Source: Candidatus Gottesmanbacteria bacterium (GTDB taxonomy: Bacteria; Patescibacteriota; Microgenomatia; UBA10105; UBA927). From it: a stretch of DNA of 64,000 nt. A model generated the notes under the pieces. It searched no databases. It was not told the DNA's origin and worked only from the letters and a program-made list of their open reading frames with translations. The stretch is taken from assembly GCA_023245355.1 (NCBI GenBank), contig JAHFKN010000001.1, positions 268,596-332,595 on the forward strand, read 5' to 3'. Positions 13,972 to 61,336 of the stretch are shown in pieces; the stretch's first letter is position 1, and each line of letters starts with the position of its first letter. A program made the position numbers and the translations under genes.

Positions 13972-14057
13972 GTGTGTATTATACCAAAAATATCCGTGCG
14001 AAGAGCAAAAGAGCCACGCTTTGATCAGCTTCAGACTACTCTCGGAAATCCGTCGTG

Positions 14058-15740: not shown

Positions 15741-15780
15741 GAATGTATCCTACCATGTTTCCGCGCCCATGAGATCGGAA

Positions 15781-20503: not shown

Positions 20504-22471
20504 TTAAAGCACTACTTCCGTATCGGTATCCAATATCATTTTCTTCCGGTCTTTCCCGTTTAGGCGGATGATCCACTCCTGCCCGTTGGTACCCGACTGT
20601 TTTTGGATCAATAACCGGTATTTACCGTCAGCGGATTTGAGCGGAGACGTGTAGGTGATTTCTATACGGGCTGTTCCCATCGGGTTGACGATCAGGAATC
20701 CCTCAAATACGGTTTTCTGCAAATCAGTGTAGGTATCCACGGGTTTAGACTTACCGTCCGTCGGCGATATGATTCCCTTGCTTTCGACAAGTTTGCTGCC
20801 CGTCGGCGCGTACACCCGTACCCAGTTCCTAAGCGGCGCGTTTAAGCATAATCCTCCGCTTTCCAATCCGCAGTCGCTTCCCTTATACGGATTTTTGTAA
20901 TCAACAGTCAGCTTCGTCGTCACGCTGTCTCCGCTTACCGTGACATCTTTTGTCACTTTTTCACTGACAAACATGTTCGATTTGGCTCCTGCCATATTGC
21001 TGTTATTGAGGTGTACGTAATCCCATCCGTTATTTTCTTTATATGCCAGAAGCGTTGCCGTCTCGGAAGCCGTCATAATACGTCCGGCCATATTGAAGCT
21101 CTCAGCTGCTTTCTGTGCGCCGGGTTCCAGGAAGTACGCAAGCACGTGTTTCTGATTCACTTCGGTCAGAAGCATCTGGAATAATTTGCCCCAGTATTGT
21201 GACGGGGAAACGCCAAGCGCTTTCTGCATGAGTTGCTGCAGTAATGTTCCGATAATGTCCTTGCGTTCCGTCCGGACATAATTGACCGGCCGCGTGGAAT
21301 AATCTTCCAGCTCATAGACTGCCCTCGGGCAATCACACCGCTTGTCCGTATCGGCAGAAAATACCCGTCCGCCGATCGTCTCGGATCCCAGTATTTTCAG
21401 CACTTCGACCAGAACGTGCGTATCGACCGCGATAATACCGTCGATTTTTTCTTTGCCGGCAGCCGTGTCATACATCCTGAGAAACTGCTGCATGGACACT
21501 TTATAATCCGGATTCAGGTTACTGTCCCGGATATACAGGTTATAGACGTTTTTGTGGAATGTCGTAATCTCCCGGGGCGCGGGGAATTTCTGCTTCAATG
21601 CACTGTCGAGATCATAGATATCCGTCGATTTCTCGAGAATCATTTTCCCTTTTTCCAGACGGAACTGGGCATATGCGGTCAAAAATCCGCCCGTACTCCG
21701 GAGTTCTTTGTCATTTTGGAACAGGATAAGATACCGCCGCATCTCCGGTTCTCCCAGCATGGCCGGGAGATTGATAAGAAGCGGCTGGGCATTCACGAAC
21801 AGATTTGCCGCATTATCGATAACGTCTTTCATCTCTACCAACCGCGCACGCACGACTGTTTTGCCGATTTTCGCTGGATACCTATCCGGATTGATCTGAT
21901 CCAGCTCCTTACGCATCGTGTCGATGGAACCTGCCATTTCCGTAATCTTCGGCGTCAATGCTTTCATGGTCTTTACCGCGACTTGGATACGTTCGTCTGC
22001 CGACCCCTGAACAAATTTGCTGCCTCCGGTAAATCCCAGTAAATCCGCGTTCGGCTCCAGTGCTTCTATCGCCCGGTCAGCAGCATCGAGGGCTGCAAAT
22101 CCGGCTGCGATTCCGTGCGATCCGTCATTGACGTATGCCCCTAAGAACGGGATAAATTTAAGAGGTGCCATCTTGTTATATTCTTTTGACAATGCCGTAA
22201 ATGCAGTGCGGGTTTTGGATAACCCGTCTTTGGTAGCAGCTAAATCCTGATTCTTGAGCGCTTCAGCAGTCTGACGGCCGATTGCTGCTACGTCATTTGC
22301 CTTTACCATAACACCCCGGAGCGGCAGCAGCATAACACCGATAATTGCTACCACAACCAGAATGATTCCGAGTGGAATCAGAATAAATTTTGCGGAAAAT
22401 TTTTTCTTTGCGGGAGTCATAACAGGATCAGGTGTCGTATCAACGGTAATTTTTTTGAGTTCTTCAACCAT
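20504..22471 (-). CDS. Large membrane-anchored extracytoplasmic protein, DUF4012-like
   Basis: 655 aa, single N-terminal TM (FILIPLGIILVVVAIIGVMLL) followed by ~600 aa soluble domain; architecture and location at head of polysaccharide locus resemble DUF4012 proteins. Family call from memory, not verified. Confidence 0.45.
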   Translation of the reverse strand: MVEELKKITVDTTPDPVMTPAKKKFSAKFILIPLGIILVVVAIIGVMLLPLRGVMVKANDVAAIGRQTAEALKNQDLAATKDGLSKTRTAFTALSKEYNKMAPLKFIPFLGAYVNDGSHGIAAGFAALDAADRAIEALEPNADLLGFTGGSKFVQGSADERIQVAVKTMKALTPKITEMAGSIDTMRKELDQINPDRYPAKIGKTVVRARLVEMKDVIDNAANLFVNAQPLLINLPAMLGEPEMRRYLILFQNDKELRSTGGFLTAYAQFRLEKGKMILEKSTDIYDLDSALKQKFPAPREITTFHKNVYNLYIRDSNLNPDYKVSMQQFLRMYDTAAGKEKIDGIIAVDTHVLVEVLKILGSETIGGRVFSADTDKRCDCPRAVYELEDYSTRPVNYVRTERKDIIGTLLQQLMQKALGVSPSQYWGKLFQMLLTEVNQKHVLAYFLEPGAQKAAESFNMAGRIMTASETATLLAYKENNGWDYVHLNNSNMAGAKSNMFVSEKVTKDVTVSGDSVTTKLTVDYKNPYKGSDCGLESGGLCLNAPLRNWVRVYAPTGSKLVESKGIISPTDGKSKPVDTYTDLQKTVFEGFLIVNPMGTARIEITYTSPLKSADGKYRLLIQKQSGTNGQEWIIRLNGKDRKKMILDTDTEVVL

Positions 22472-22531
22472 GGAATTATTGTCGGGTGTAGCGGCAAAAA
22501 AGTCAACCCCGCCCGGTACGGATTGGGTTCC

Positions 22532-23167
22532 TTACACTGCTCCTCTGCCCGATATCATAGCCCAGGGGCTTTTAAGCAGAATGTATATATCCAGAAATAA
22601 TGAGCGTTTGAGTACGTAATCAGCGTCCAGTTTTATCCGTTTGTCAAAATTCACTTCGCTTCTGCCTGACACCTGCCAATACCCCGTAATTCCCGGGCGT
22701 GATGACAGCACGATCTGCACAAGTTCCTTCGTATGGGGATATTTGCGCTGCTGCTCAACCAGCTCGTCGGCATAGTACGGACGCGGGCCGACCAGACTCA
22801 TATCTCCTTTGAGCACGTTGAGAAACTGCGGGATCTCATCGAGCGAATGTTTGCGGATAAACCGGCCGACGGCAGTGACCCTGGGGTCTTCCCGGAGTTT
22901 ATAACTGTTCCGTTTATACTCGAGGTACAGTTTCTTGAGCTTCGGATCGGTACGGAGTTTTACATGCGCATTGACGATCATCGACCGGAACTTAAACAGC
23001 TTAAACGGCTTCCCGTTTTTTCCGACGCGCTGCGGCGTATCGGCAAATACCGGACCCGGACTATCAAAAACAATAGCCAGAGCGACGATAATGCTGATAG
23101 GAAGAAAAATAATTGCAAGAATCAGACTTCCGACAATATCAATAAACCGCTTTAAAATAGTGTACAT
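22532..23167 (-). CDS. Bacterial sugar transferase: monotopic polyprenyl-phosphate phosphoglycosyltransferase (PglC/WcaJ-C-terminal type)
   Basis: ILKRFIDIVGSLILAIIFLPISIIVALAIVFDSPGPVF re-entrant helix motif, KFRSM, DEIPQFLNVLKGDMSLVGPRP catalytic region. Confidence 0.85.
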   Translation of the reverse strand: MYTILKRFIDIVGSLILAIIFLPISIIVALAIVFDSPGPVFADTPQRVGKNGKPFKLFKFRSMIVNAHVKLRTDPKLKKLYLEYKRNSYKLREDPRVTAVGRFIRKHSLDEIPQFLNVLKGDMSLVGPRPYYADELVEQQRKYPHTKELVQIVLSSRPGITGYWQVSGRSEVNFDKRIKLDADYVLKRSLFLDIYILLKSPWAMISGRGAV

Positions 23168-23194
23168 AATGCCGCACCACATGACCGTTTGGTT

Positions 23195-24280
23195 TCAGGT
23201 TAAGTGGTCGTTTTCTGTGCCCTGCATGGATTCGACAAGTTTTTTCACTTTCGGTACCGATGTTTTCCGGCATACAAGCAGCACGTCATCGGTGTTGACG
23301 ACCAGTACATCTTCCATATCGATGGTAACGACCAGCTGCTTCCCGTTATAGTTATACACTAAACTGTCCTCTGTATCCGTAAGCATCACTTTTCCCTGCG
23401 TGACGTTTTTCTCTTTTGATTCTTCCAGCGCTTCCTTGAGTGCTTCCCAGGCTCCTATATCGCTCCATTCAATGTTGTCTGATATGACCAGCGCATCATT
23501 GGCATCAAGTTTTTCCAATATGGCGTTATCAAAACTGATTTTTTCCAGCGTCGGGTAGATCTCATCGAGTATGTCAGAAAACTGTGCCGTGCCCCACGCA
23601 TCGGCAATCCGGGTAATACCGGCTGCCAAATTCGGAGCAAACGCTACATACTGCTTCCATAAAAACGCCGGCGTCGTCACAAAATATCCTAAATTCCATG
23701 CATGGTGACCGCTGGCAAAGTACTTTTTGGCGGTGTCTGCATCCGGGCGGTACTGAAAATCCACAAACGAGTGGAAGGATACGCCTTCTTTTTTCATCAC
23801 TTCGCTGCCGTAGGAAATCCATCCTAAATTTTCACTGGCAAACCGGGGCTTTTGGGATACGAACACGATTTTATCCTGATTGTCTTTCACGATATCTCCG
23901 GCTATACGGAGAATTTTCCGGAATAACGCTTCTTTTCTCACCAGATGATCACTCCAGAGAATAACCATGGGTTCGTTCGGCGTTTCTTTGGCAAGCAGCG
24001 CTGTCATGAGTCCTACTGCCGGTCCGACATCGCGCACCTGAGGTTCCCCTATTACGTGTCTCGGAGGTAATTTGTTTAATTGCTCCTGTACGATGGGAAT
24101 ATATTGTTTCCCTGTGGATATAAAAATATCCTCCCAGGTAAAATCCGGGAGCAGCCGCTCAGCAGCAAGCTGCAGCGTGGACCGGTCGCCGATAATTTTT
24201 TCAAACTGTTTGGGTGACTTTTTCCGTGATAACGGCCACAGCCTTGTCCCGACTCCGCCTGCAAATATAATTGCTTTCAT
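23195..24280 (-). CDS. Mannose-1-phosphate guanylyltransferase-like sugar nucleotidyltransferase
   Basis: MKAIIFAGGVGTRLWPLSR N-terminal signature of ManC/GMP-type nucleotidyltransferases; 361 aa. Confidence 0.75.
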   Translation of the reverse strand: MKAIIFAGGVGTRLWPLSRKKSPKQFEKIIGDRSTLQLAAERLLPDFTWEDIFISTGKQYIPIVQEQLNKLPPRHVIGEPQVRDVGPAVGLMTALLAKETPNEPMVILWSDHLVRKEALFRKILRIAGDIVKDNQDKIVFVSQKPRFASENLGWISYGSEVMKKEGVSFHSFVDFQYRPDADTAKKYFASGHHAWNLGYFVTTPAFLWKQYVAFAPNLAAGITRIADAWGTAQFSDILDEIYPTLEKISFDNAILEKLDANDALVISDNIEWSDIGAWEALKEALEESKEKNVTQGKVMLTDTEDSLVYNYNGKQLVVTIDMEDVLVVNTDDVLLVCRKTSVPKVKKLVESMQGTENDHLT

Positions 24281-24338
24281 ACCTGATTATGGAAATTCCG
24301 TTTGTGTTACGGTGACGGAATTCCGTTATCCTTTCTTT

Positions 24339-25526
24339 TTACACTGCTGCCGGTATCATTGTTGTTTTTTGTTTTTGATACAGCTTCGTTACGAGACTGT
24401 GCATACGTTTGCGAAAATGTCCTTCACTCATATTACTCACCTGCGCACGGCAGTCTGACGCCGTATACTCCTGCGTCAGAAATTCCCTGACTGCAGCTAT
24501 CAGCGAATCCGCTGTTTGGTGATCATACAACACACCGGATACATGTTCCTTTACTATTTCCGCTACCCCGCTTTGCCGGTATGCTATTACCGGAACACCG
24601 ATTGCCTGCGCCTCTGCTGCGGCAAGTCCGAAGTCTTCATCGGCTGCATATACAAATGCACGACAACCCTCATAATATCGAACCAGCTCAGAATCTGTCA
24701 AATGACGGTCGATAAACCGGATGTTGGATCGGGCCTGCGATTTCAGTTCCCGCTTCTGCCAGCCGTCCCCGATGATGACAAGCGGGAGACCGAGCGCGTT
24801 AAACGCCTGAATGAGAATATCAAGCCGTTTATAACTCACTAACCGGGACACGGTAAGGAAATATGATCGTTTTTTTGTGCGCTTCCCTGACGTCCGCCGG
24901 AACAATTGCGTATCTACCGGCGGATGGATGACATCGGTCACATCACGGTGATAATACGTTTCGATCCTCTGTTTTACCCGCTGCGAAATGGCCACATAAT
25001 AATCGGGCCTGCTGGCGGAAACGATATCCCATTCCCGCAAAACCGGAGCCATCAGACGCAGTGCTGCCGCAGCTATACCACTGAATAATCCAAACCCCGG
25101 CTGATTCATATACTGTGTAAATCCGCTCCATAAGTACCGGGTGGGAGTGAGACAATAACAGATATGCAGCGTATCCGGCTTGGTAATGACGTTTTTGGCC
25201 TCTGCCGATGTCACCGAAATGACGACGTCATATTCATCAAATGTAAACGATTCAAACGCAATGGGGGTAAGCCCCAGCAACGACTCATGTGCATGGGTTG
25301 CAAACGGAATACGCTGTAAAAACGACGGGTGCACACGGAATACATCCGCCCACGATGCGCGTTTTTTATCATACACCGCCGTAAAAAGAGGAGCCGCCGG
25401 CCAGATTTTATGAAGTGCCAAAAGCACCCGCTCCGCTCCCCCCCATTTATTTACCCGGTCATACACGAATGCAACGTTCATAAATGCTTTGCGTCTCCTC
25501 TGCCATACGTTTCCATGAAAACGCAC
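24339..25526 (-). CDS. GT4-family glycosyltransferase
   Basis: GT-B C-terminal E-x7-E region (LPLVIIGDGWQKRELKS...AADEDFGLAAAEAQAIGVPVIA). Confidence 0.8.
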   Translation of the reverse strand: MRFHGNVWQRRRKAFMNVAFVYDRVNKWGGAERVLLALHKIWPAAPLFTAVYDKKRASWADVFRVHPSFLQRIPFATHAHESLLGLTPIAFESFTFDEYDVVISVTSAEAKNVITKPDTLHICYCLTPTRYLWSGFTQYMNQPGFGLFSGIAAAALRLMAPVLREWDIVSASRPDYYVAISQRVKQRIETYYHRDVTDVIHPPVDTQLFRRTSGKRTKKRSYFLTVSRLVSYKRLDILIQAFNALGLPLVIIGDGWQKRELKSQARSNIRFIDRHLTDSELVRYYEGCRAFVYAADEDFGLAAAEAQAIGVPVIAYRQSGVAEIVKEHVSGVLYDHQTADSLIAAVREFLTQEYTASDCRAQVSNMSEGHFRKRMHSLVTKLYQKQKTTMIPAAV

Positions 25527-26580
25527 TCAGAAATTTTTTATCATTGCCCTGCAATTGCATGACGGTACTGTTCTTTGCCGCTATATCCGTAAGCGCCTTT
25601 GCCAAACTCCCGGAACTGTTCGGATCAAAATATACGGCGTGAGACCCCAATATCTCATGAAATACGGGGATGTCGGAAGCGCATACGATACATCCTAAAG
25701 AAACCGCTTCCAGCGCAGGTAATCCGAACCCTTCCATCAGGGACGGAAAAACAAACGCGGATGCATGCGTATACAGACTGACAAGCTGCGGGTCATTTGC
25801 CGGACCGAAAAAAACGACGGACGAAGAAAGTCCCATCTCATGAACACGGGCATTCACCTGCCGGTAAAAGAAATCATCCGCGCCGACCAACACGAGTTTA
25901 CACGCACCGACGGATTTTTGGGTATCCATAAACTGCCGGAATCCCTCTAAGAGCATTTGGATATTTTTGTGCGGATAGGCATTTCCTACGTAGAGAAAAT
26001 AGGGTTCGTTAATCAGACGTTTTCCTTTCGAAGCGGCATGATTCATAAGCGCCGGGTCCACTCCTTCGTATGTGACGGTTATGTTCTTGCCCGGTATATG
26101 AAAATGATCCATGATTTCCCGTTTTGTCGCCTCTGAAACAGCGATGATATGGCGTGCGCGCCTGAGCCCTATCCATAATTCCAGCCAGTATCCCAGCCGT
26201 TTGAGGTAATACAGCGGCAGCGGCAGCGTCGTGGCTTTGCCGGTAGCAAAATGCAGAATAGTCAGATCGTGAATCGTGATTACCATGCGGCCGGAATATA
26301 AAACCGGCGGATTATGATACGGAACGTGCAGGAGATCCAGATGCTCCGATGCAAACAATTGCGGCATGCGGATCTGTTCTGACAGCGTATGCCAATGCGA
26401 AGGAGCCAGCACTTTCTTCCAGCGGGAAGAGGGAAGCGTAAACGAATCGTAACTTTTCGGCGACAGGAACACCACATACTCATGTCCGGAATCGCGAGCA
26501 CCAAGCTCCCCGATCAGATTCCGGATATATCTTCCTACTCCTGTTTCCTGGATAAGCCGCGCGTCTATACCTATTTTCAT
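25459..26580 (-). CDS. GT4-family glycosyltransferase
   Basis: GT-B motifs FVFPSLMEGFGLPALEAVSLGCIVCASD. Confidence 0.8.
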   Translation of the reverse strand: MKIGIDARLIQETGVGRYIRNLIGELGARDSGHEYVVFLSPKSYDSFTLPSSRWKKVLAPSHWHTLSEQIRMPQLFASEHLDLLHVPYHNPPVLYSGRMVITIHDLTILHFATGKATTLPLPLYYLKRLGYWLELWIGLRRARHIIAVSEATKREIMDHFHIPGKNITVTYEGVDPALMNHAASKGKRLINEPYFLYVGNAYPHKNIQMLLEGFRQFMDTQKSVGACKLVLVGADDFFYRQVNARVHEMGLSSSVVFFGPANDPQLVSLYTHASAFVFPSLMEGFGLPALEAVSLGCIVCASDIPVFHEILGSHAVYFDPNSSGSLAKALTDIAAKNSTVMQLQGNDKKFLSAFSWKRMAEETQSIYERCIRV

Positions 26581-26583
26581 ACC

Positions 26584-27492
26584 TCACACTCCGAATTTTT
26601 CCAACAAAAATATTCTCGTTTTATAGACGCTGTCCACAAAAAACGTAAGCCACGGACCATAGACACGCGCGTAGTTTTTGGTATAAAACAGCCAATTATA
26701 TTTGTGAAAATATATTTCCGTCGTGATACGGCGTTGTTTGAGCGTATTGGAGCGTCCGCTCTGTTTTTTTTTGTGCAGGATGGTTGCCGAGGGAGTAAAC
26801 AGAATTTTCCAGCCCTTTTGCCGTATCCTGTACGCCCAGTCTATATCCTCGCCGTACATAAAATAATCCTCGTCAAGGAATCCTACCTCCCGGAGTGTTT
26901 CCCTCCGTATGAGGAAAAATGCGCCGACAATACAGTCTACCTCGTGATCGACGGACAAATCCTTGTACCCCTGATGATATTCCCCGAATAGTTTCGTTTT
27001 CGGAAACAAACGCTCCAGTTTCAGTATGTAGGTGAGCGATACCCACGGCGTCGGAAATCCCCGGTGACAGGCAGGATCCATGGAGCCGTCGGGCAGCAGA
27101 AGCTTGCAGGTCGATGCTCCCGCTTCCGGGTGATGATCCATAAATGAAATCATCGTACGAATCGTATCGGGAGGCGTTTCCGTATCGGTATTGAGAAGCA
27201 ATATGTATCTGCCCTTTGCACGTTTGATCCCGGGATTATTTCCGGCGGCAAATCCCAGATTTTTCCCGTTCTGTATAAAAATGACGCCGGGGAATTCCTT
27301 CTTTACCATTTCCTCACTTTTGTCGGCCGATCCGTTATCAACAACGATCACTTCCATAACATACGGGCCCAATTCGGACTGAAGCAGTGTCGCAAGACAC
27401 ACGTGGGTGAGATCTCTGGTGTTGTAATTTAATATAACAACGGACAAATCCGGATTATTTTTTCTCATATGCATCTTTCCAGACTCCCTCAA
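26584..27492 (-). CDS. GT2-family glycosyltransferase
   Basis: LSVVILNYNTRDLTHVCL...VVDNGSAD, DxD region LLLNTDTE. Confidence 0.8.
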   Translation of the reverse strand: MRESGKMHMRKNNPDLSVVILNYNTRDLTHVCLATLLQSELGPYVMEVIVVDNGSADKSEEMVKKEFPGVIFIQNGKNLGFAAGNNPGIKRAKGRYILLLNTDTETPPDTIRTMISFMDHHPEAGASTCKLLLPDGSMDPACHRGFPTPWVSLTYILKLERLFPKTKLFGEYHQGYKDLSVDHEVDCIVGAFFLIRRETLREVGFLDEDYFMYGEDIDWAYRIRQKGWKILFTPSATILHKKKQSGRSNTLKQRRITTEIYFHKYNWLFYTKNYARVYGPWLTFFVDSVYKTRIFLLEKFGV

Positions 27493-28639
27493 GTGTTTTG
27501 GCTATATGCTCCCAGCCATACCGCTCTGTTACGAGAACACGCGCTTTCGCAGTCACGGCCTGGGTAAGTTTCGTATTATCCCACACCGCGGCAACCTGCG
27601 CGATAAATTCCTCGGGTGTTTCCGCCTGGAAATAATGCGTACCGGGTATTACATCCAGTCCGCTCATCCCCTGATGAGTCGTCACGACGGGAAGGCCGCT
27701 TGCCATCGCTTCCAGCATTTTAAACTTCGTCCCTCCCGAGATTGCGTGAGGGGCAACGAGAACGTCAGCGTGCGCGTATACATCCGCAATATTCTCTACG
27801 TCCTCGAGAACTTCACCGCCTGAAAGCCGCACGGCAACTGAAAAACGTTTGGGTATATCGCGGCCGACGATGCGGAGTTTCGATTGCGGGAACTGCGTTC
27901 TTATACCCGGCCAGATTCTGCTGACTAACATCTCTGCCGCTTCCCGGTTCGGGAGCCAGCGGAAATTACCGACAAACAATACGACAGGGTGCGTCTGTTT
28001 TTGTATTTTCCGGTACGGAAACAACGCACCGTCGACACCGTTTGGCGTAACCGTGACGGAGTGACTCAGATACTCTTCCATGACTGCGGCGTCTTCTTTC
28101 GACACTGCCGTCAGTTTGTCTGCAGTCCGCCAGCTTATATGTTCCCATTTTTTCAGTTTGGCTACGTCGCGGGCCAACAACTGATGCAGTCCGAACACCG
28201 AATAGAGATCCGCATACGCGCCGTATACGGCATACTCAATATTATGTTCGGACACGACGAGCGGCGTGTTGATAGGTGGGAGCGCCGGCAGCACATAAAA
28301 CGGTTCTATATGAACGACATCAAACGGCCCGCCTTTCAGAAGATCGCTGATAAGCTGCTTCATTTCCTCATTGTGGTAGGTAGCCAAAAGCCACGGATAT
28401 TTCCCGAGCAATGCGGCCAACATGTATTTAGGCTGCCATGCTCTGCCGCGCATAACCACTTCTACGTTCCGGCAAAACCCCAGATGTTTTTTATATTCGC
28501 GTTCACTTGCGTCCCGGATAAAAGAAACGAGCGTAATTTCATGACGAGCGCTTAACGCTTTGAGCAGATTATACATCCGGATTTGCCCGCCGGAATGCAG
28601 AGGCCACGGCAATACTGCGGAAACGAATAAAATTTTCAT
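27455..28639 (-). CDS. GT4-family glycosyltransferase
   Basis: GT-B fold motifs VLVAPHAISGGTKFKMLEAMASGLPVVTT. Confidence 0.8.
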   Translation of the reverse strand: MKILFVSAVLPWPLHSGGQIRMYNLLKALSARHEITLVSFIRDASEREYKKHLGFCRNVEVVMRGRAWQPKYMLAALLGKYPWLLATYHNEEMKQLISDLLKGGPFDVVHIEPFYVLPALPPINTPLVVSEHNIEYAVYGAYADLYSVFGLHQLLARDVAKLKKWEHISWRTADKLTAVSKEDAAVMEEYLSHSVTVTPNGVDGALFPYRKIQKQTHPVVLFVGNFRWLPNREAAEMLVSRIWPGIRTQFPQSKLRIVGRDIPKRFSVAVRLSGGEVLEDVENIADVYAHADVLVAPHAISGGTKFKMLEAMASGLPVVTTHQGMSGLDVIPGTHYFQAETPEEFIAQVAAVWDNTKLTQAVTAKARVLVTERYGWEHIAKTLEGVWKDAYEKK

Positions 28640-30078
28640 GGAGATTTGGGTTTGGTAAGGTCAATAATGGCAAATTTTTCGTTCCGTACAAGAACCGTAT
28701 AGGTTTTGGCAAGCGTCATGGTTTCCCAGTCGTCGTCCGTAGGTGAAACCGTGACATAATGCGTGGCTCCCATTTTGAGTTTTTTGTCTATATCAAATCC
28801 GAGCGGCCAGCCCTGACGTTTGGTTTGATACAAAAATGTCGTATCGCCGTTGTATGGGGCAATCACTTTCGCATCTTTCGGCAGCAGTTTGTCTGCCATA
28901 ATTCCTGCTTCTATAATTTCCGGCCGGTTAATCCAGTAATACGTCCGCATGGTATACCACGAAAACGCGAGCATAAATAAACAACTGGCTATCAGTACGC
29001 CGTACCGGGCAATAGGAGAAAACATTTTTTCGGTCATGAGGAACGCTATGCCGCGCGCGACATATATGCTTATAACCGGCAACAACAGTATCTGGTAATA
29101 ATCATGCTGTACGTTGCCTGCCGCAAAAACCGTAAGATACGCTAGTGCCCCTGCTGCCATGACGGAAAACAGCCAACCTTCTTTTTTACCCGGACGCACG
29201 AGAAATCCGAGAGAAAGCGGCACGATGCCCCAGTATCCCAATATGAGTTCCGCCACCCGTTTAGCAAAAATCCATTGAAACCATGCGCCTTTAAACCGGA
29301 TATTGCCTTTGTTGAGCAGCCAGTCAAATACGGGAATTCCCTCGGGATACTGCAGTATCCATACCCGCCAGCCATAAAACGGCAGCAGACAGATAAGCGC
29401 ATACAGACCGAGTCGTATCACTGAGGCAACCGACACCTTATGCCGCATCAGGATGACATATGGCACCGGCAGCAACAGAAATCCCGCAGTAGGTTTCACG
29501 AGTACGGCAATAGCTCCTGCAACCGCAGCAGCGATAATGCCCCATATACTGCTTTTCGCGCCGTTTGTCGCCGTAAGGGACAGATATATACTCAGCATCG
29601 CCCAAAACACGGCAAATGTTTCCGGCAGGATCGTCCGCCCGTAAAATACGCTGTACGGAAGTATGGCGTACACAAAACCGGCAAGTACTGCCGTAAGCGG
29701 CGAGCTCACCTCAAAAAGGAGCAGTGTTATAAGTGCGGCAGTTCCTGCTGCCGAAAAAATAGTAACCAGACGGAGCCAGATATCGACGGAAACCGAAGGG
29801 TAGAGCCGTGCGGCGGCCGCTGCAAGCCCCTGATACAGCGGAAACTCCACCATGCGCCAGCCGCTGGGATTGTCCTTACCGGACTGGATATTGGATAAAT
29901 CCTGATACCGTGGATGCAGTAAATCTATGCCGTTACGGACATACATCTGAGCTACGGAGGCCGTATCCGTCTGACGGAAACTGTGCCAGTCGGCAACGGG
30001 CGCCGTGACGCGGTAGAGCCTAAGCGCAATAGTGAGAATGACAACAAGAATAATAAATATCCAGTACCGTTTCTTCAT
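28636..30078 (-). CDS. GT-C polytopic glycosyltransferase, PMT/ArnT (GT39/GT83)-like
   Basis: 480 aa, about 11 TM. N-terminal LRLYRVTAPVADWHSFRQTDTASVAQMY loop with acidic/aromatic residues is typical of dolichyl/undecaprenyl-phosphate-sugar dependent PMT_2/ArnT proteins. Confidence 0.65.
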   Translation of the reverse strand: MKKRYWIFIILVVILTIALRLYRVTAPVADWHSFRQTDTASVAQMYVRNGIDLLHPRYQDLSNIQSGKDNPSGWRMVEFPLYQGLAAAAARLYPSVSVDIWLRLVTIFSAAGTAALITLLLFEVSSPLTAVLAGFVYAILPYSVFYGRTILPETFAVFWAMLSIYLSLTATNGAKSSIWGIIAAAVAGAIAVLVKPTAGFLLLPVPYVILMRHKVSVASVIRLGLYALICLLPFYGWRVWILQYPEGIPVFDWLLNKGNIRFKGAWFQWIFAKRVAELILGYWGIVPLSLGFLVRPGKKEGWLFSVMAAGALAYLTVFAAGNVQHDYYQILLLPVISIYVARGIAFLMTEKMFSPIARYGVLIASCLFMLAFSWYTMRTYYWINRPEIIEAGIMADKLLPKDAKVIAPYNGDTTFLYQTKRQGWPLGFDIDKKLKMGATHYVTVSPTDDDWETMTLAKTYTVLVRNEKFAIIDLTKPKSP

Positions 30079-33000
30079 GGTAGTGTAACCGGCTCCTTTT
30101 TCACTTCCCTCAGATTCCCCTGGTCGTCAAACACGAAAATCTTCTGCGTTTTGGAATCCGGGGTCACCATATTGAGAGGCTCCTCAACCGTAGACCACGA
30201 GTACAACCTGGCGTCCGGATTCCGGAAGATAAACCATAACGCATCCGACAGTCCGACCGGGAATACCCAGGCGTCGCGGTACCGGATCGGCACCGATACG
30301 AAGTGGAACTGCATCGGAGTTTCTGCCCATTCATCCTGATAATAACTTTCCATGGAAACGAAAAATCTCTGCACCCGCTCTCCCGCTTCAAACCAGTCGC
30401 GGTGCAGCTGCTGGATACTGGTAATCTGCACCATAAAAAACAGAGAGATGAAAAGGGCTACCACCCCCAGCGCCGCATCCTTCCCGCTTTCCAGCGTCAG
30501 GATATAAATTTTTTCCAGACCAAAAACCAACAGGAATACCAACCCCGCGGAGGCAAGATACCCGTACCGGGGAGAAATATTCCCGAGTCCCAAAAACGGC
30601 AACAGCGTAATAAGGAAAAACCCTGATGCAAACAGCAGAATCGTGCGGTCCCGGGGTGAGAGAAGCTGCCTGATTTTGGGAGCAATCCATACAATAACCG
30701 CTGCGATAATCAGTCCGATAGCTGCGGTCACAATGACGTGCGTGCGCATGTTCGCGCGCACAATCTGATACAACGGGGCGCCGAACGAACCGGTAAGGCC
30801 CAGTAATACATAGCCGAATGCGTTCCCGATAGTGTTAAACGGCAGCTTGAGGAGATTATAGTTATAATCGCCGTTTAACCAGTGACTGCCGGACATAAAC
30901 CGGGCGACTGCATACAAAGGAACGGGCAGCACCAACACCCAGTGCTCAAGGCGCATCCTGAAACCGGTCAGTGTAGGGCGCACTTCGGCAATCGTCCACG
31001 CATACAAGAGGTACAAAAGCGGGGTGACGACACCCAGCTCGTGAAACGTCATGGCAGCCAGGGCAGAAAGTGCCGCCAACAATACGAACCGCATCTTTTT
31101 CTTCTCGCTCCACGCGATATAGCAAAGCAGGCTTGTCAGCATGAATGCGGATGCAAACAAAAATCCGGTTGCCGAAACCCAGAATATCGCCTCCGAAAAT
31201 CCGGAGAGTCCCGCAAACAGAAAGGCGCTTATTGCAGCATGCAGTTTCCGCCGGAACACTTTTATCCCGACTAAAAACACGAGTATGCTGACGATATAGT
31301 GTAGTGTCAGTGATACGGCGTGGTATGCAGTCTGATTCAGCCATGCAAACTGATACATTCCCAGGAAGTACAGTTTGGTTCCCGGCCGATAGAAAAACCC
31401 TTGGGCGTCGGTAAAGTATCCTGCAATCCGTGAAAGACTCGGGACACAGCGCTCGGAAATCGCTGCTGCTGCGTTGCCGCAGTCTGCTGCCCACCTAAAC
31501 CAGGTGAAGTCATCTCCGACAAAGTAATTGCGCGTCATCTGCGAAAAAAGCAGTATGACGACGACAAGAAGATATATCGCGACGGCATAGGATGACATGG
31601 CCATCCGTTTTACTTCGGAAAAGAATTTAAGCGGAATCTTAACATACATCGATACCATTCCCATCACGATGCCGGTTAATAACCATAATACAAACGCTAC
31701 TTTTGACGCTTCAAACACATCGATAAATACCGCGTTGACGGCAAGTCCGGCAACTCCGGCTGCATACCCCAGCACAAAACTTCTGACGACCGGGGAATGA
31801 ATTTTGTCCCACGCGCGCACGATATACACGCCTACTATCAAAAATATCGCAACAAAGGAAATAAATCCTAAGCTCCCTACTTCCGCCAGCATCCTAAGAT
31901 AGCTGTTATCGACGGCCAGACTCACCGAGCCATACCCGCTGCCAAGCAACACGTTTCTTTTGAATGCCAAAAGCGCATTCGGCCACTCCCCCTGAAACCG
32001 CGTGGTAAACGACAGGTCGTAGGCAAACGCTTTTTTCATGAGATACTGCCCGTTTATCACATACACGTCCGCCGATGCGGTTGCCTGCCTGAGGGGAGGT
32101 TCATAGTAAAAGCTTCCCAAGCGCTTCACGACAGGAGAAAGTGTCAGATTGATATACCCGGTGCCGCTGGGCAAATCCTCACCTGTGGGGGCTGACGGCT
32201 CGGTAAGTAACACCGCGGACTCCGGCAATTGCGCAAACGGCACGACAAATGATGCCGTCGGGCTTGCTTTGGTAGCCAAGTCGCCTATGGTCAGGTAAAA
32301 CCGCTGCCATACGCGTTTATCGGCAAAATACGTATTGGGTACTTCTTTGACATGGCCGATCGGATACCCGGTTTTTGCATCGACGATGACGTCGATCGGT
32401 TTGATCGTACTGCCGAAGCGCGCCATAAGCTGAGGCGAAAGAATCAGGAACGCGATACTCCCCACAATAGCCAGCGGCAGAAGTACCATGACCGTTTTCC
32501 TGCTTTGGAAAAACAGCACTGCGGCAAACGACAAGATCAACGCAAAAAACGAAATTCGCGACACCGTCCAGAACAGCACGACGACCCCCAGAAGTACGAT
32601 AACCCCCAGTGCAACCCGCAGGAACCAGTTCCGGTATCCGAACATGAGGCTCGCGATAATCGGCAGGACCAATACGTAATAGGCGGCCAGATCATAATGC
32701 CCTGCAAACGTCGAAGATATACGGGACAACGCCGAAAGCGTGAGCGGCATGCCCTTGGCAAACTCTTCATTCATCGTAAGATATGCGGGAAACCCCAGAT
32801 ATTTCTGACCCAATCCGTACAGACTGATCAGCAGCGTCGTCACAACAACCGTTGCAATCACCGGTGTTGCCGAGTTACGGTCTTTCATCGCGGAAAACGC
32901 AATGAAAAATACGCTCATATACTCGATTCTGCGTAAGAAACTGAGTAACGCTACGTTTGCAAATACTCCTGATATCGAAGGGAAAATAAGCAGCATGCCG

Positions 33001-33263
33001 TGGATAGTTGCAGCCGCTCCGATAAGCCAAAACATAAGAAACGGCAGTGTCAGCGGTGTTTTAAACGATACTTTGTTCCGGATAAACAGGATGACCCAGG
33101 CAAGCAGGACAAACAGCACGAGAAAATCCTCAACCCGGATGTACACCCAGGTATTTTTTATGTCCAGAAGCGGCAGTTTCGGATACAGCGGTATAAACAC
33201 CAGCAAAGCGAGTGTCGCAATCTGCAACCCACGTTCCTTACACCAGTTTATAAGCTTCCGCAT
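30075..33263 (-). CDS. Giant (1062 aa) polytopic membrane protein: O-antigen ligase/polymerase (Wzy_C)-like module fused to a second GT-C-like polytopic module and C-terminal soluble tail
   Basis: First ~540 aa: >10 TM with Wzy_C-type periplasmic loop and SVSLAVDNSYLRMLAEVGSLGFISFVAIFL signature. Residues ~560-980: second set of >10 TM starting FVGDDFTWFRW. Last ~80 aa hydrophilic. Confidence 0.55.
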   Translation of the reverse strand: MRKLINWCKERGLQIATLALLVFIPLYPKLPLLDIKNTWVYIRVEDFLVLFVLLAWVILFIRNKVSFKTPLTLPFLMFWLIGAAATIHGMLLIFPSISGVFANVALLSFLRRIEYMSVFFIAFSAMKDRNSATPVIATVVVTTLLISLYGLGQKYLGFPAYLTMNEEFAKGMPLTLSALSRISSTFAGHYDLAAYYVLVLPIIASLMFGYRNWFLRVALGVIVLLGVVVLFWTVSRISFFALILSFAAVLFFQSRKTVMVLLPLAIVGSIAFLILSPQLMARFGSTIKPIDVIVDAKTGYPIGHVKEVPNTYFADKRVWQRFYLTIGDLATKASPTASFVVPFAQLPESAVLLTEPSAPTGEDLPSGTGYINLTLSPVVKRLGSFYYEPPLRQATASADVYVINGQYLMKKAFAYDLSFTTRFQGEWPNALLAFKRNVLLGSGYGSVSLAVDNSYLRMLAEVGSLGFISFVAIFLIVGVYIVRAWDKIHSPVVRSFVLGYAAGVAGLAVNAVFIDVFEASKVAFVLWLLTGIVMGMVSMYVKIPLKFFSEVKRMAMSSYAVAIYLLVVVILLFSQMTRNYFVGDDFTWFRWAADCGNAAAAISERCVPSLSRIAGYFTDAQGFFYRPGTKLYFLGMYQFAWLNQTAYHAVSLTLHYIVSILVFLVGIKVFRRKLHAAISAFLFAGLSGFSEAIFWVSATGFLFASAFMLTSLLCYIAWSEKKKMRFVLLAALSALAAMTFHELGVVTPLLYLLYAWTIAEVRPTLTGFRMRLEHWVLVLPVPLYAVARFMSGSHWLNGDYNYNLLKLPFNTIGNAFGYVLLGLTGSFGAPLYQIVRANMRTHVIVTAAIGLIIAAVIVWIAPKIRQLLSPRDRTILLFASGFFLITLLPFLGLGNISPRYGYLASAGLVFLLVFGLEKIYILTLESGKDAALGVVALFISLFFMVQITSIQQLHRDWFEAGERVQRFFVSMESYYQDEWAETPMQFHFVSVPIRYRDAWVFPVGLSDALWFIFRNPDARLYSWSTVEEPLNMVTPDSKTQKIFVFDDQGNLREVKKEPVTLP

Positions 33264-34152
33264 AGGTTTCCTTAAGATGCTCGATCCCGAGCAGCGCCCC
33301 GATGCACCAGGTGATAACAGCCTTTGCCCTGAGCATTACGCGCACCATGAACAATCCGTAGGCTGACCCGTGTTTTTTATACAGGTACAGAAATCCCCGG
33401 TAAATGTTTAACACGGGCCCTTTTCTCCTGTTGGTTGAGCTGGCTGCACCTAAGTGTACGATATGGCTCCGGGGATAGAAATAGGCGGGGTATCCTTTTT
33501 TCCTGGCCCGCATCAGAAGGTCGATTTCTTCCATGTACATGAATATCTTCTCATCAAACAGTAAATCCTGCATGAACAGCTTTTTGGGCGCCAAGATACA
33601 CGCTCCCGAAACCCAATCGACTTTCCGTGCCTGATTCGGAGACCAACGGGTAAGCCCGATCACATCGCCTTTGAGAAATAATGACGCGAAAATAACCGGA
33701 AGCGAAAAAAACGGACCGCACGAACTCTGCGGGCTCCGGTCGGGATTGAGCAATTTAGGACCGATAAAGGCATTGGGGTGCTGCCGCCCGAATGACACGA
33801 GTTTGCCGATCGCATTATTGAGGACGACCGTATCGGAATTCAGAAGCAGAATATACTCCCCCGACGCCGCCCGGATTCCCTGATTATTTCCCCGTCCGAA
33901 TCCCACATTCTCGCGGTTTAATATCGTTTTGACGACGGGGAACTTTTTCCTGAGCATCTCGCGGGTTCCGTCAGTCGATACATTATCGACCACCAGAATT
34001 TCCCACGTCAGCTTGGACCCTTTGAGACTCCGGATAGTCGAGGACAGGCAGTCTTCGGTAAGTTTTTTTGTATTGAAGCTGACGATGATAATGGATAAAT
34101 CTATAGCCATATAGAGCGTGAAGAAAACGCATTTATTGGAATAGCCTCGCAA
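33238..34152 (-). CDS. GT2-family glycosyltransferase
   Basis: LSIIIVSFNTKKLTEDCL...VVDNVSTDGT, LLLNSDT DxD region. Confidence 0.8.
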   Translation of the reverse strand: MRGYSNKCVFFTLYMAIDLSIIIVSFNTKKLTEDCLSSTIRSLKGSKLTWEILVVDNVSTDGTREMLRKKFPVVKTILNRENVGFGRGNNQGIRAASGEYILLLNSDTVVLNNAIGKLVSFGRQHPNAFIGPKLLNPDRSPQSSCGPFFSLPVIFASLFLKGDVIGLTRWSPNQARKVDWVSGACILAPKKLFMQDLLFDEKIFMYMEEIDLLMRARKKGYPAYFYPRSHIVHLGAASSTNRRKGPVLNIYRGFLYLYKKHGSAYGLFMVRVMLRAKAVITWCIGALLGIEHLKETYAEAYKLV

Positions 34153-34732
34153 ATTTAAGCCGGTATGTCAGGTTTTTGTTGCGCTGTCGGATAACTTTCG
34201 CCGGTACTCCGCCGACCACGTCATAGGGAGCCACATCATGCGTTACCACGGCTCCCGATGCGACAACTGCCCCTTTTCCGATTGTGACTCCGGGAAGTAT
34301 CGTCACCCGGGTTCCTATGACCACATAATCCTCTATCACAACCGGCCCCCCTGTTTCGGCAAAATCCGGGGAATCGATATCGTGTTCCATGGTGTATATG
34401 CGCACTTCCCCGGCCACGGAAACATTGTTGCCGATCCTAAGCGGACGGTCGCCCTTTCCGGCCAACTGCTTTATATAGCTTGCCGCTTTGCTTTCTCCGC
34501 TCCCGGCGGCCCGTTTATACCTGCCGTCTAAGAATGCATCGTTGCCGATAATCGTATTGTGGCCGATGTGTACTCCTGCCGGATTATTAAACTGTGCACG
34601 CCAGTGGATACTGGAATCCTTTCCGACCCGCACTCCGAACAGATACCGGTAGAGAAACAACCGGATGGTGTGACTCGGGATAAACCCTATAAGCGTACAA
34701 AGATATACCCAAAAATCGATAAAGAGTCTCAT
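34133..34732 (-). CDS. Left-handed beta-helix (hexapeptide) sugar O-acetyltransferase, WbbJ/WcaF/MAT-like
   Basis: Hexapeptide repeats IGHNTIIGNDAFLDG..., IGNNVSVAGEVRI, VIGTRVTILPGVTIGKGAVVASGAVVTHDV. Confidence 0.75.
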   Translation of the reverse strand: MRLFIDFWVYLCTLIGFIPSHTIRLFLYRYLFGVRVGKDSSIHWRAQFNNPAGVHIGHNTIIGNDAFLDGRYKRAAGSGESKAASYIKQLAGKGDRPLRIGNNVSVAGEVRIYTMEHDIDSPDFAETGGPVVIEDYVVIGTRVTILPGVTIGKGAVVASGAVVTHDVAPYDVVGGVPAKVIRQRNKNLTYRLKFARLFQ

Positions 34733-35859
34733 ACTGCCGATCCTTTCTTTCCGACCTCTTCCAACACGGACATCACTTTTTCGGCCGCAAGGTCCCACGT
34801 AAATGCTTTAACGCGTTTTTTTCCGGTTGCCACACGCGATAAGCGCTCTTTTACCGTTTCCGTAAGTGCCTGGGTAATGCCTGAAGCGATATTTGCCGCA
34901 TCCTCGGGATCCACATATATCCCGGCATCGCCGGCTATTTCCGGCAGACTGGAGGTAGAACTCACCACGACCGGCACGTCATAACTCATAGCCTCCAAAA
35001 CCGGCAAACCGAACCCTTCATACAGACTCGGAAGCACGAAACATGCGGCGTTTTTATACAGCTGCGGAAGTGCACTGTCCGGCACGAAATCCATAAACTG
35101 CACACGATTGCTGATACCGAATTTTTTAGGTGCTGAAAGTATTTCGTCGTACAGCCATCCCTTTTTCCCCACGATAACCAGCGAAATTTCCTTATCTTTA
35201 AGGAGACTGACAGCTTCGATCAGGCGCGCGAAGTTTTTACGCGGCTGGAGGGTTCCTACTGAGAGGATGTAGCGTTTCGGAACAGGTAGAGATGAATCAG
35301 TACTCTTTGCCATAGCATCTTTGGAGACGCTATCCGGTAATGCCGGATAGGCAACCACGACGTCCGAATCCGGAATGTGGTATGAATCGATTATAGCATG
35401 TTTGGAAAACTCGCTAATCGTTATGATTTTGGCGGCATGACGCACCGAATACGCAGTCCAATGAACCAATTTATGCAGATCCTGCGCCCTGAATAACTCA
35501 GGATACGAAAGATACGAAACGTCCATAATCGCCATCACTCTGGGAATTTTGACAAACCTCGGGATATAGTGCGTCGGGGAAAAAATCACATCCGGGCGCG
35601 TGCTGTCGGTCATAATACCTATAGGTAACCCGATAAACGTCCAGAACTGCTTGAGGGGTATGCTCCGGTAGGTAAACGTCGCTGACTCTTCGGGCATATG
35701 CGCGGCGACTTGGCCCGGCACATAGACCCGGACCATATCAAACACCCCGCGACCCGCTCGCTGCAGTTTTGCGATATGATCTATAAGTTCAAACGCGAAC
35801 CGACCTATCCCCACCCGGACTCCCGCGTTTGCTTCATACCCGTCGATTGCCAGTATCAT
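34729..35859 (-). CDS. GT4-family glycosyltransferase
   Basis: Complete GT-B: N-domain plus C-terminal FVLPSLYEGFGLPVLEAMSYDVPVVVS. Confidence 0.8.
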   Translation of the reverse strand: MILAIDGYEANAGVRVGIGRFAFELIDHIAKLQRAGRGVFDMVRVYVPGQVAAHMPEESATFTYRSIPLKQFWTFIGLPIGIMTDSTRPDVIFSPTHYIPRFVKIPRVMAIMDVSYLSYPELFRAQDLHKLVHWTAYSVRHAAKIITISEFSKHAIIDSYHIPDSDVVVAYPALPDSVSKDAMAKSTDSSLPVPKRYILSVGTLQPRKNFARLIEAVSLLKDKEISLVIVGKKGWLYDEILSAPKKFGISNRVQFMDFVPDSALPQLYKNAACFVLPSLYEGFGLPVLEAMSYDVPVVVSSTSSLPEIAGDAGIYVDPEDAANIASGITQALTETVKERLSRVATGKKRVKAFTWDLAAEKVMSVLEEVGKKGSAV

Positions 35860-36446
35860 GCTTCCCCCAATCCCGGATACACGACCGTCAGTTTACTTTG
35901 GGAAATGCCCAAGAGTTCCTGTGCATCATGCCTGGTCGCTTCTGAGTCGCAAAAAAATACGGCGCACGCTTTGGCTGCCCGCACGAGTCTTCGGGTGTGC
36001 GTTGCGACGATATTGGCAGCAATCCTGCCGCGCGCGACATCTAACACCGCCTGATTATGAGACTCCTCGGGATACCGCAGCACGGAAAGATCATGGATAG
36101 TGGTAACCCCTATGGCATGGATAAGCGGCGGGTGCGTCCAGTCGCTGCTCCAGAAAATATCCAGAGGACCGGTAAACCATTCAACAGGCACGATATGCGC
36201 GCGGTTCCACAGCCAATCGAGTACCGTAGGCGGCACGGGTATCGACACCAGGCGGACATTCGCGTGTTTTCCGCCAATCGTAGATACGAATTCGGAAAAA
36301 ACGTGCCGCTTCCGCAGGGATGAGCCGAACAACACATATTCATGTTCCGGATACTTTCTGACTAAAGAAGTAACGATACTGCGGACGTATCGTGCAACTC
36401 CGGTGCCCTGATGGGCAATTTGGCTTATATCTATGCCGATTTTCAT
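35856..36446 (-). CDS. Truncated GT4-like protein: Glyco_trans_4 N-terminal domain only (possible gene remnant)
   Basis: 196 aa, GT-B N-domain (MKIGIDISQIAHQGTGVARYVRSIV...) ending VVYPGLGEA exactly where the C-terminal catalytic domain would begin. Stop overlaps start of next complete GT4 (ATGA). Confidence 0.5.
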   Translation of the reverse strand: MKIGIDISQIAHQGTGVARYVRSIVTSLVRKYPEHEYVLFGSSLRKRHVFSEFVSTIGGKHANVRLVSIPVPPTVLDWLWNRAHIVPVEWFTGPLDIFWSSDWTHPPLIHAIGVTTIHDLSVLRYPEESHNQAVLDVARGRIAANIVATHTRRLVRAAKACAVFFCDSEATRHDAQELLGISQSKLTVVYPGLGEA

Positions 36447-36452
36447 ATGGGG

Positions 36453-37442
36453 TTATCCGGAATATCCTTCAGGATGAGTCGCATGCCATCGCATGGCTGA
36501 TTCGACTATATTACGGATATCCGAATGCTTCGGTTTCCAGCCGAATTCGCGCATGAGCTTCCTAGGATCCGATACAAGCACTGCCGGATCCCCGCTTCTC
36601 CGGTCGGATTTCCGGACGTTGAATGTCTTACCTGCGACGTCTTTTACCACGTTTACCACTTCCTGCACGCTCACGCCCTGACCGGTACCCACGTTATATA
36701 CGTCACTCTGATGGCCCGAAAACAGCGCCTCCAGAGCCAATATATGCGCTTCACACAGATCTTCTATATGGATATAGTCCCGTAATGCCGTGCCGTCGGG
36801 AGTTTTATAATCCGTGCCGAATATCATAAACTCCGGGCGTTTCCCGAGAGCCGCCGCACACGCAAGCGGAATAAGATGGGATTCCTCTGCGTGCATTTCC
36901 CCGTTGTTGCCGTCCAACGCGGCTCCTGCAGCATTAAAGTACCGGAGTGCGATGCTTCTGATTGCAAACGACCGGTCATATACCCGGAGCAATTCCTCAA
37001 ACGCCCATTTGGATAACCCATACGGAGATACCGGATCCTTCTTATGATCTTCGGAAATAAGCGGCGTTACCGGATTGCCGTAAACGGCAGCGGTAGAGGA
37101 AAAGATAATATGCTTCACCCCCGCCTCTTTCATCCCCTCAAGCAATGTCACGGGAGCGATCACGTTATTTTTCATGTATTTGATCGGCTGGCGCATTGAC
37201 TCTTCCACGCGGATGTATCCGGCAAAATGCAGGATTCCGTGTATCTTGTGCTCTGCGAAAATCCGCTGTATCAGGGATGCATCACCGACATTTCCCTGTA
37301 TGACGGTCGCTCCATTAGGAAGTGCTTGCCTGTGGCCGAATTCAAATGTATCCAGAACTATAGGCTCGTAGCCGCGGCTTGCCAGCATGCGTGTCATGTG
37401 GCTCCCTATGTAGCCGGCGCCCCCGGTTACTAAAATCTTCAT
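36453..37442 (-). CDS. galE: UDP-glucose 4-epimerase
   Basis: MKILVTGGAGYIGSH, YxxxK (PYGLSKWAFEE), LRYFNAAGA, DGTALRDYIHIEDL - close match to GalE throughout. Confidence 0.85.
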   Translation of the reverse strand: MKILVTGGAGYIGSHMTRMLASRGYEPIVLDTFEFGHRQALPNGATVIQGNVGDASLIQRIFAEHKIHGILHFAGYIRVEESMRQPIKYMKNNVIAPVTLLEGMKEAGVKHIIFSSTAAVYGNPVTPLISEDHKKDPVSPYGLSKWAFEELLRVYDRSFAIRSIALRYFNAAGAALDGNNGEMHAEESHLIPLACAAALGKRPEFMIFGTDYKTPDGTALRDYIHIEDLCEAHILALEALFSGHQSDVYNVGTGQGVSVQEVVNVVKDVAGKTFNVRKSDRRSGDPAVLVSDPRKLMREFGWKPKHSDIRNIVESAMRWHATHPEGYSG

Positions 37443-42210: not shown

Positions 42211-42213
42211 AAA

Positions 42214-49812: not shown

Positions 49813-49819
49813 AACGGTT

Positions 49820-61322: not shown

Positions 61323-61336
61323 AATATTCCTTGCAA

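Follow-up and report, generated by a model that had tools for sequence, protein, structure and literature searches.

Introduction

The present study concerns a single gene that joins two polytopic glycosyltransferase (GT) modules, located in a stretch of 64,000 nucleotides (nt) from Candidatus Gottesmanbacteria (contig JAHFKN010000001.1, positions 268,596 to 332,595 of the forward strand), which in its full length is hereafter called the window. Among the closest described enzymes are the O-antigen ligases, for which residues R215, R288 and H338 have been reported to be important in Escherichia coli WaaL (PMC3643930). The essential Arg pair of WaaL (R191 and R265 in the solved structure) binds the phosphates of undecaprenyl diphosphate (Und-PP) (PMC3643930, PMC10920833), and SEDS enzymes and polymerase families of the same clan possess Asp or Glu where ligases have His (PMC10920833). 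WadA has been presented as the first bifunctional O-ligase (PMC9938171), while Gtr-type enzymes of the GT-C fold add single sugars to O-antigens (PMC11127046).

An earlier note on this DNA had read the gene as a fusion of an O-antigen ligase/polymerase (Wzy_C) module with a second, GT-C-like module. In the current study this reading is supported by the folds of both modules, by conservation of the fusion, by relatives in which the two modules are encoded by separate genes, and by synteny.

Results

The fusion is genuine and conserved

The fusion gene consists of one uninterrupted open reading frame (ORF), from an ATG start to a TGA stop codon (Table 1), and both sequence strings on which the earlier note relied are present in its 1062 amino acid (aa) product, SVSLAVDNSYLRMLAEVGSLGF at residues 446-467 and FVGDDFTWFRW at residues 581-591. 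Hydropathy and AlphaFold secondary structure predict a layout of approximately 12 transmembrane (TM) helices, a K/R-rich linker, approximately 11 further TM helices and a soluble alpha/beta tail.

More than 1400 relatives were recovered from a set of 5.8 billion proteins, with full-length homologues forming more than 120 clusters. Nearly all of the best 120 clusters are 1040-1070 aa in length and align with the query over its whole extent at 50-91% identity; they are named 'O-antigen ligase family protein' or 'hypothetical' and originate from Gottesmanbacteria, Levybacteria and the 'Patescibacteria group'. The protein encoded in the window has itself already been deposited in NCBI/ENA without a name. 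Close homologues, with up to 87% identity in the C-terminal half, are also held by many TPA_asm records of metagenome-assembled genomes titled 'uncultured Gammaproteobacteria bacterium' (L008, L009, L014, L017 and others), a label which looks like a placeholder or an error.

The junction between the modules was examined by tblastn in 80 loci kept from the 175 species-representative genomes of the Genome Taxonomy Database (GTDB) that contain a relative of the fusion protein. In approximately 70 of these 80 loci a single in-frame match extends from residue 1 to about residue 1056 within an open frame of 1045-1104 codons, while the remaining loci are truncated by contig ends or carry frameshifts that are scattered and lie away from the junction. 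The named genomes among these loci belong to Gottesman-, Levy-, Roizman- and Woesebacteria. Independent assemblies, drawn from many different samples and species, keep the fused frame at 40-91% identity, and the length and charge of the linker are conserved across homologues. The fusion is therefore real and conserved in Microgenomates-type Patescibacteria, and the assembly or frameshift artefact that the earlier note had named as its possible undoing is not what is observed. An AlphaFold model of the whole protein (predicted template-modelling score, pTM, 0.74) is consistent with the two helical bundles being packed in a defined manner.

The N-terminal module

The Wzy_C signature that the earlier note had assigned to the N-terminal half stands in part: the string is present and the module adopts the WaaL fold of 12 TM helices, in which a large outer loop precedes TM10, and has the ligase WaaL as its best structural match, but the Pfam score remains below the gathering cut-off and the catalytic His is replaced by Asp. 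With Wzy_C (PF04932) the whole protein scores 15.7 bits and the N-half on its own 17.0 bits, where 31.7 is required, the sub-threshold match spanning residues 405-471 (profile positions 62-149). Among relatives, homologue P0041 reaches 28.9 bits and only the split orthologue in locus L005 passes, with 33.1 bits. An NCBIfam scan of the N-half produced only a weak match to IctB, and sequence-profile searches of the PDB, conducted with an alignment of 66 sequences and with the Wzy gene of L005, returned no relevant chain.

Because hhalign found no match between the family profile and the E. coli WaaL sequence, residue equivalences were established through shared Pfam Wzy_C profile coordinates rather than by superposition. 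Residues 205-354 of E. coli WaaL align to profile positions 6-146, with R215 at position 16 and H338 at position 130; in the fusion protein these two positions correspond to R236 (placed via P0041) and D452, and the WaaL motif H338-N-x9-G-x-x-G reads D452-N-x9-G463-x-x-G466. An Asp thus occupies the position of the ligase catalytic His (motif H-[NSQ]-x9-G-x-x-[GTY]), as it also does in the split relative in L006, and by the distinction drawn in PMC10920833, with Asp or Glu at this position in SEDS enzymes and polymerase families, the module resembles a polymerase more closely than a ligase. All 66 relatives have R236, R422 and D452 unchanged; R422 (in TTRFQGEW), whose mapping is inexact, is likely the equivalent of E. 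coli R288. Since the invariant D452 replaces the ligase His, we lean towards a Wzy-type polymerase over a WaaL-type ligase for this module.

The outer loop is approximately 100 residues longer than that of the ligases and harbours a beta-rich insert, with strands predicted by AlphaFold between residues 287 and 415, and the invariant columns of this region are G361, E362, Y415, D416 and R422. On the predicted outer face the invariant polar residues of the N-half include R236, R422, D452, R457, E461 and D515/E518/K521.

The C-terminal module

For the C-terminal half, the expectation of at least ten TM helices in a GT-C-like fold followed by a soluble tail was borne out. An AlphaFold model based on 35 C-halves (predicted local distance difference test, pLDDT, 87; pTM 0.88) has approximately 11 TM helices, and the tail (residues 951-1062) is modelled at a pLDDT of about 85-90 with strands between residues 985 and 1054. 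Foldseek against the PDB matched this module to STT3, PglB, Pmt4, DPY19, ALG9 and EmbA/B (best probability 1.0, E ~1e-4), the fold being that of GT-C class A. The best structural matches include STT3B, AglB and PglB, with ALG12, Pmt4, Pmt2 and ArnT scoring equally high.

A Pfam scan of residues 546-1062 with E values up to 10 gave no PMT or PMT_2 match and only noise (DUF6057, E 0.33). A profile search with the C-module recovered 36,868 relatives in 1.84 billion representatives, 8,167 of them at E < 1e-10, and three of the ten stand-alone relatives scanned have a PMT or PMT_2 match. Distant stand-alone members do pass Pfam, P0257 with PMT_2 (27.0 bits versus 26.1) and P0240 with PMT (25.9 versus 22.7), and hhalign links the C-half profile to P0257 (99.7%, E 1.9e-25, 428 columns, including the NYFV(G/S)DDF and FYRP motifs). 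The STT3/GT66 motif WWD/WWDxG is absent from all 35 C-halves. Because these intermediates pass Pfam and are joined to the C-half by hhalign, and because WWDxG is absent, the C-module is, as judged from sequence, a divergent PMT_2/ArnT-like subfamily of GT-C class A that is invisible to a direct Pfam scan.

The motif set of the module comprises NYFVGDDFTWFRW, GFFYRPG, SHWxxGDYNYN and LPFLGLGNxxxRY. The acidic pair D584-D585 in the first of these is invariant in 66 of 66 sequences, is also kept in the distant P0257, and sits 6-7 residues after the helix of residues 558-578, on the outer face according to positive-inside analysis; the invariant residues of the C-half are D584, D585, R590, R626, E691, E742, D799 and R899. 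A GT25 or other soluble glycosyltransferase domain was not found in the fusion protein, the additional module being a polytopic GT-C. The C-half and the PMT-like protein encoded immediately downstream have no match to one another by hhalign or BLASTP and are therefore not recent duplicates.

Predicted topology

The helices of the model were taken as TM segments, and the density of Lys and Arg (K+R) was calculated over the 66 homologues. Short loops assigned to the cytoplasm have 0.26 K+R per residue as compared to 0.09 in the outer ones. From this we infer that the N-module crosses the membrane 12 times and has both ends inside, that the linker is cytoplasmic, and that the 11 TM helices which follow end outside. 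Since the TM count of the N-module is even, the C-module would lie in the usual GT-C class A orientation, and the predicted topology places the N-module loop (R422, D452), the DD motif, the C-terminal domain and indeed all invariant polar residues of both modules on the outer face.

Relatives with separate genes

In loci L006/L007 the same operon contains, in a row, a Wzy-like gene (535 aa, 41% identical to query residues 13-532), a C-module gene (467 aa, following after a 12-nt spacer and 30% identical to residues 566-1004) and a PMT_2 gene whose product is 33% identical to the PMT-like protein of the window. A JGI contig similarly has genes of 540 aa and 480 aa that are 61 nt apart and are followed by a PMT gene. 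In L005 (7990-8020) the Wzy and C-module genes overlap by 20 nt at an A-rich run (EKKAK / RKKQ), and what looks like a split here may reflect a frameshift introduced by sequencing into a gene that is in fact fused; L005 was accordingly set aside, so that the evidence for separate genes rests on L006/L007 and the JGI contig, with their clean spacers. P0122, a candidate stand-alone C-module, is cut by a contig end and was not counted as a split.

Whether the two modules are fused or split, the third GT-C gene (PMT-like) always comes next. By sequence comparison, then, the N- and C-modules are independent folding units that are kept together as neighbours or in one chain, and because they stay adjacent or fused it can be argued, on comparative-genomics grounds, that they act in the same pathway.

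The surrounding operon and window

The glycan operon around the fusion encodes a DUF4012 protein, a Bac_transf phosphoglycosyltransferase (22532-23182), ManC, two GT4 enzymes, a GT2, a further GT4, the PMT-like GT-C, the fusion, a GT2, a hexapeptide acetyltransferase, a GT4, an ORF with a GT4 N-terminal domain and an epimerase. This order of genes is shared by L001 and L002/L003, where the homologues have 53-57% identity. The ATG of the PMT-like gene overlaps the TGA of the fusion (ATGA), and this gene has the same position in L001, L005, L006 and one JGI contig; the upstream GT2 gene overlaps the start of the fusion by 26 nt. No chain-length regulator or co-polymerase was recognised, and no LCP-type ligase was found among the genes scanned.

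The candidate polyprenyl-phosphate hexose synthase of 238 aa (Table 1) has its best NCBIfam matches to AglJ (7e-36), ArnC, Dol-P-hexose transferase, PgfS and PpgS, none of which reaches the equivalog cut-off, and could supply the lipid-phosphate-sugar donor. For the two GT2 genes on either side of the fusion, an identity as polyprenyl-phosphate-sugar synthases could not be established. The only Wzx-like gene found in the window lies 27 kilobases (kb) away, and none occurs within 8 kb in L001.

Several further features of the window were noted. The DUF4012 protein (655 aa, single-pass, 20504-22471, minus strand) is conserved at the end of the operon beside the phosphoglycosyltransferase, as also in L001 and L002. 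A 196-aa ORF with only a GT4 N-terminal domain (35856-36446) lies directly upstream of a complete GT4 gene (34729-35859), both on the minus strand; the pair recurs in L001 (4825-6536) and L002 (4985-6606), and its presence in two related loci excludes a local frameshift. At 38642-41617 (minus) a protein of 991 aa has approximately ten N-terminal hydrophobic segments, a C-terminal GDSL/SGNH hydrolase domain (Pfam E 3e-22) and a weak NCBIfam match to the trehalose-lipid delivery protein MmpA, and may serve the same island as a glycan acyl-esterase or acyltransferase. A 1171-aa ORF at 42597-46112 (minus), with about ten TM segments and only a weak DUF5667 match, lies at the edge of a segment (42001-50000) in which the GC content is 0.40-0.45 as against approximately 0.50 elsewhere, so that this part of the glycan island may be variable or acquired. 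A second set of genes at 58582-63936 (minus) resembles a three-component system: it comprises small GT2 enzymes similar to polyprenyl-phosphate-sugar synthases (58582-59382 and 60606-61322), the Wzx-like gene (59363-60748), one GT4 and a 514-aa protein (62392-63936) with weak YfhO/PgfM1 matches. Just downstream of the glycan operon lie dcw genes (MraW, penicillin-binding protein transpeptidase and Mur ligase) at 12796-17042. All ORFs of at least 200 aa with a family match in the window lie on the minus strand, and the GC skew is negative over its whole length.

Table 1. Coordinates, within the window, of the fusion gene, its predicted parts and associated genes
Feature	Position	Strand	Basis
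Whole fusion gene, 1062 aa plus stop codon	30075..33263	minus	ORF list, full-length homologues, in-frame conservation
N-module, aa 1-538, predicted 12-TM WaaL/Wzy-like (GT-C class B), both termini predicted cytoplasmic	31650..33263	minus	
R236 (in TVSRIS), putative equivalent of E. coli WaaL R215	32556..32558	minus	Shared Wzy_C profile position 16
Enlarged, predicted extracytoplasmic loop, aa 276-455, with beta-rich insert and invariant R422	31899..32438	minus	AlphaFold strands, invariant columns, low K+R density
Wzy_C motif AVDNSYLRMLAEVGSLG, aa 450-466, D452-N-x9-G-x-x-G	31866..31916	minus	Wzy_C profile position 130
Predicted cytoplasmic linker between modules, aa 539-557	31593..31649	minus	Mean K+R 3.3 across homologues; between helices 520-538 and 558-578
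C-module membrane domain, aa 558-950, about 11 predicted TM, GT-C class A, PMT_2/ArnT-like	30414..31592	minus	
NYFVGDDFTWFRW, aa 579-591, invariant D584-D585, start of predicted first extracytoplasmic loop, candidate catalytic acidic pair	31491..31529	minus	
C-terminal soluble alpha/beta domain, aa 951-1062, predicted extracytoplasmic	30078..30413	minus	AlphaFold, topology count
Conserved glycan operon around the fusion	20504..37442	minus	Pfam; gene order as in L001 and L002/L003
Downstream PMT/PMT_2-like GT-C gene, 480 aa	28636..30078	minus	Pfam PMT E 8e-9
Upstream GT2 gene	33238..34152	minus	Pfam Glycos_transf_2; position conserved in relatives
238-aa GT2, candidate polyprenyl-phosphate hexose synthase	60606..61322	minus	NCBIfam
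Wzx-like flippase candidate (Polysacc_synt_3)	59363..60748	minus	Pfam E 1e-11

Discussion

Employing a combination of sequence comparison and structural prediction, we propose with moderate confidence that the fusion protein is a bifunctional glycosyltransferase of approximately 23 TM helices, which acts outside the membrane as part of the surrounding envelope-glycan operon. The phosphoglycosyltransferase and the GT4 and GT2 enzymes of the operon would build an oligosaccharide on Und-PP in the cytoplasm, and this would then be flipped outward. The N-module would bind the Und-PP-linked glycan through R236 and R422 and transfer the oligosaccharide en bloc, with D452 serving as general base where ligases employ His, while the C-module, with D584-D585 of the first outer loop as its putative catalytic residues, would transfer single sugars, probably a hexose such as mannose, from a polyprenyl-phosphate sugar to the same growing glycan or to its acceptor. 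The fusion would hold both outer-face steps together, and the translationally coupled downstream PMT-like GT-C would be the third partner. Owing to the His-to-Asp change we favour a sequence of events in which the glycan is polymerised and decorated or extended, over one in which an acceptor is primed and the glycan then ligated; the topology, the donors, the acceptor, the choice of polymerase over ligase and any channelling are inferred.

The most serious rival, which we regard as less likely, is precisely this priming and ligation: the N-module would be a true WaaL/PglL-like ligase that attaches a completed Und-PP-oligosaccharide once, after the fused GT-C has placed the acceptor sugar from a polyprenyl-phosphate sugar. 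Possible acceptors would then include lipid anchors, S-layer proteins, pilins and wall polymers, and the logic would be that of Brucella WadA with both steps on the outer face. The ligase WaaL is the closest structure to the N-module, NCBI calls the relatives 'O-antigen ligase family protein', protein glycosylation is performed by PMT relatives, the many cytoplasmic glycosyltransferases of the operon fit one long non-repeating glycan, and a chain-length regulator was not found, all of which speak for such a ligase. The operon has no evident acceptor gene and Patescibacteria are not known to possess a lipid A-core acceptor, and we count both points against it. WadA does provide a precedent, being an O-ligase fused to a GT module that makes the ligation site (PMC9938171, PMC10920833), but the residue that is the catalytic His in ligases and O-oligosaccharyltransferases (H338 in E. 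coli WaaL, H349 in PglL; PMC3643930) is an invariant Asp in the present family.

It is very unlikely that the N-module polymerises while the C-module, acting in the manner of an oligosaccharyltransferase (OST), moves the finished Und-PP polymer en bloc to a protein or to the wall. The occurrence of STT3B, AglB and PglB among the top structural matches of the C-module would fit such an activity, as would the lack of an LCP-type ligase among the genes scanned, but ALG12, Pmt4, Pmt2 and ArnT score level with the OSTs, sequence homology points to PMT/PMT_2 and away from STT3, none of the 35 C-halves carries WWD/WWDxG, and GT66 is the sole class A family listed with lipid-diphosphate-oligosaccharide donors (PMC10920833 Table 1). 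About as improbable is a protein with only one catalytic module, the other having degenerated into a scaffold such as a membrane anchor or partner-binding domain; Pfam scores are weak or absent for both halves and the canonical His is missing, but both halves present dense invariant polar residues on the predicted outer face and both modules also occur as independent genes. An artefact of assembly or frameshift, or chance read-through of two genes, to which the split relatives might lend some credit (the L005 split being itself possibly a frameshift), is refuted by the conservation of the fused frame in independent assemblies at 40-91% identity and of the length and charge of the linker.

Returning to a bifunctional enzyme that polymerises and decorates or extends its glycan, its wider meaning lies in the envelope of its hosts. 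Little is known of the cell envelopes of bacteria of the Candidate Phyla Radiation (CPR). The operon is conserved in several Microgenomates lineages and adjoins the dcw genes, and for these reasons its product is probably a core surface glycan. We tentatively suggest that two activities, en-bloc transfer from Und-PP by a WaaL/Wzy fold and transfer of single sugars from polyprenyl phosphate by a PMT/ArnT fold, together with the adjacent third GT-C, may form the central machinery with which Microgenomates-type CPR bacteria make a conserved envelope glycoconjugate that has so far gone undescribed, and that the C-module may represent a new GT-C class A family. The fusion and its split relatives constitute a Rosetta-stone case, indicating that WaaL/Wzy-type and PMT/ArnT-type enzymes work on the same substrate, a partnership which elsewhere is hard to establish genetically. 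The profile matches of the C-module expose a large GT-C set of which Pfam coverage may be partial, and a natural tandem of both GT-C structural classes could serve structural work and glyco-engineering.

With respect to known systems, the family is already present in databases under a partial name, and the fusion itself appears undescribed: our literature search found no account of a protein in which a GT-C class A module is joined to one of the WaaL/Wzy type. In three-component systems (GtrA/GtrB/Gtr GT-C; CsbB/GtcA/YfhO; Pgf) a GT-C adds single sugars, taken from a polyprenyl-phosphate sugar, outside the membrane to an Und-PP-linked or surface glycan (PMC11127046). As in those systems, the window holds a candidate polyprenyl-phosphate-hexose synthase; their GT-C, however, is a separate protein that is not fused to a polymerase or ligase, and no GtrA-type flippase was identified beside the fusion. 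Among the Wzy-type polymerases and SEDS enzymes (CAZy clan GT-C1; GT119, GT125-129), none has been described with an appended GT-C class A module. As compared to PMT_2/ArnT/PMT enzymes (PF13231, PF02366; GT83/GT39), the C-module has no direct Pfam match, possesses its own motif set, lacks a MIR domain and is fused behind a WaaL-like module.

WaaL itself (PF04932, GT121, GT-C class B; Cupriavidus metallidurans 7TPG/7TPJ, E. coli) differs from the fusion protein in having His where the latter has D452, in a loop that is shorter by approximately 100 residues and is without the beta-rich insert, and in the absence of a second glycosyltransferase at the C-terminus; the fusion protein, moreover, scores below the Pfam threshold and belongs to a lineage not known to make lipopolysaccharide. 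WadA of Brucella and the Rhizobiales (GT25 plus GT121) likewise combines a WaaL-like module and a second glycosyltransferase of the same pathway in one chain (PMC9938171, PMC10920833). In WadA the additional module is N-terminal, a soluble GT-A of the cytoplasm with a nucleotide sugar as donor. In the fusion protein it is instead C-terminal and a polytopic GT-C, and its site is predicted to share the outer face with the WaaL-like site.

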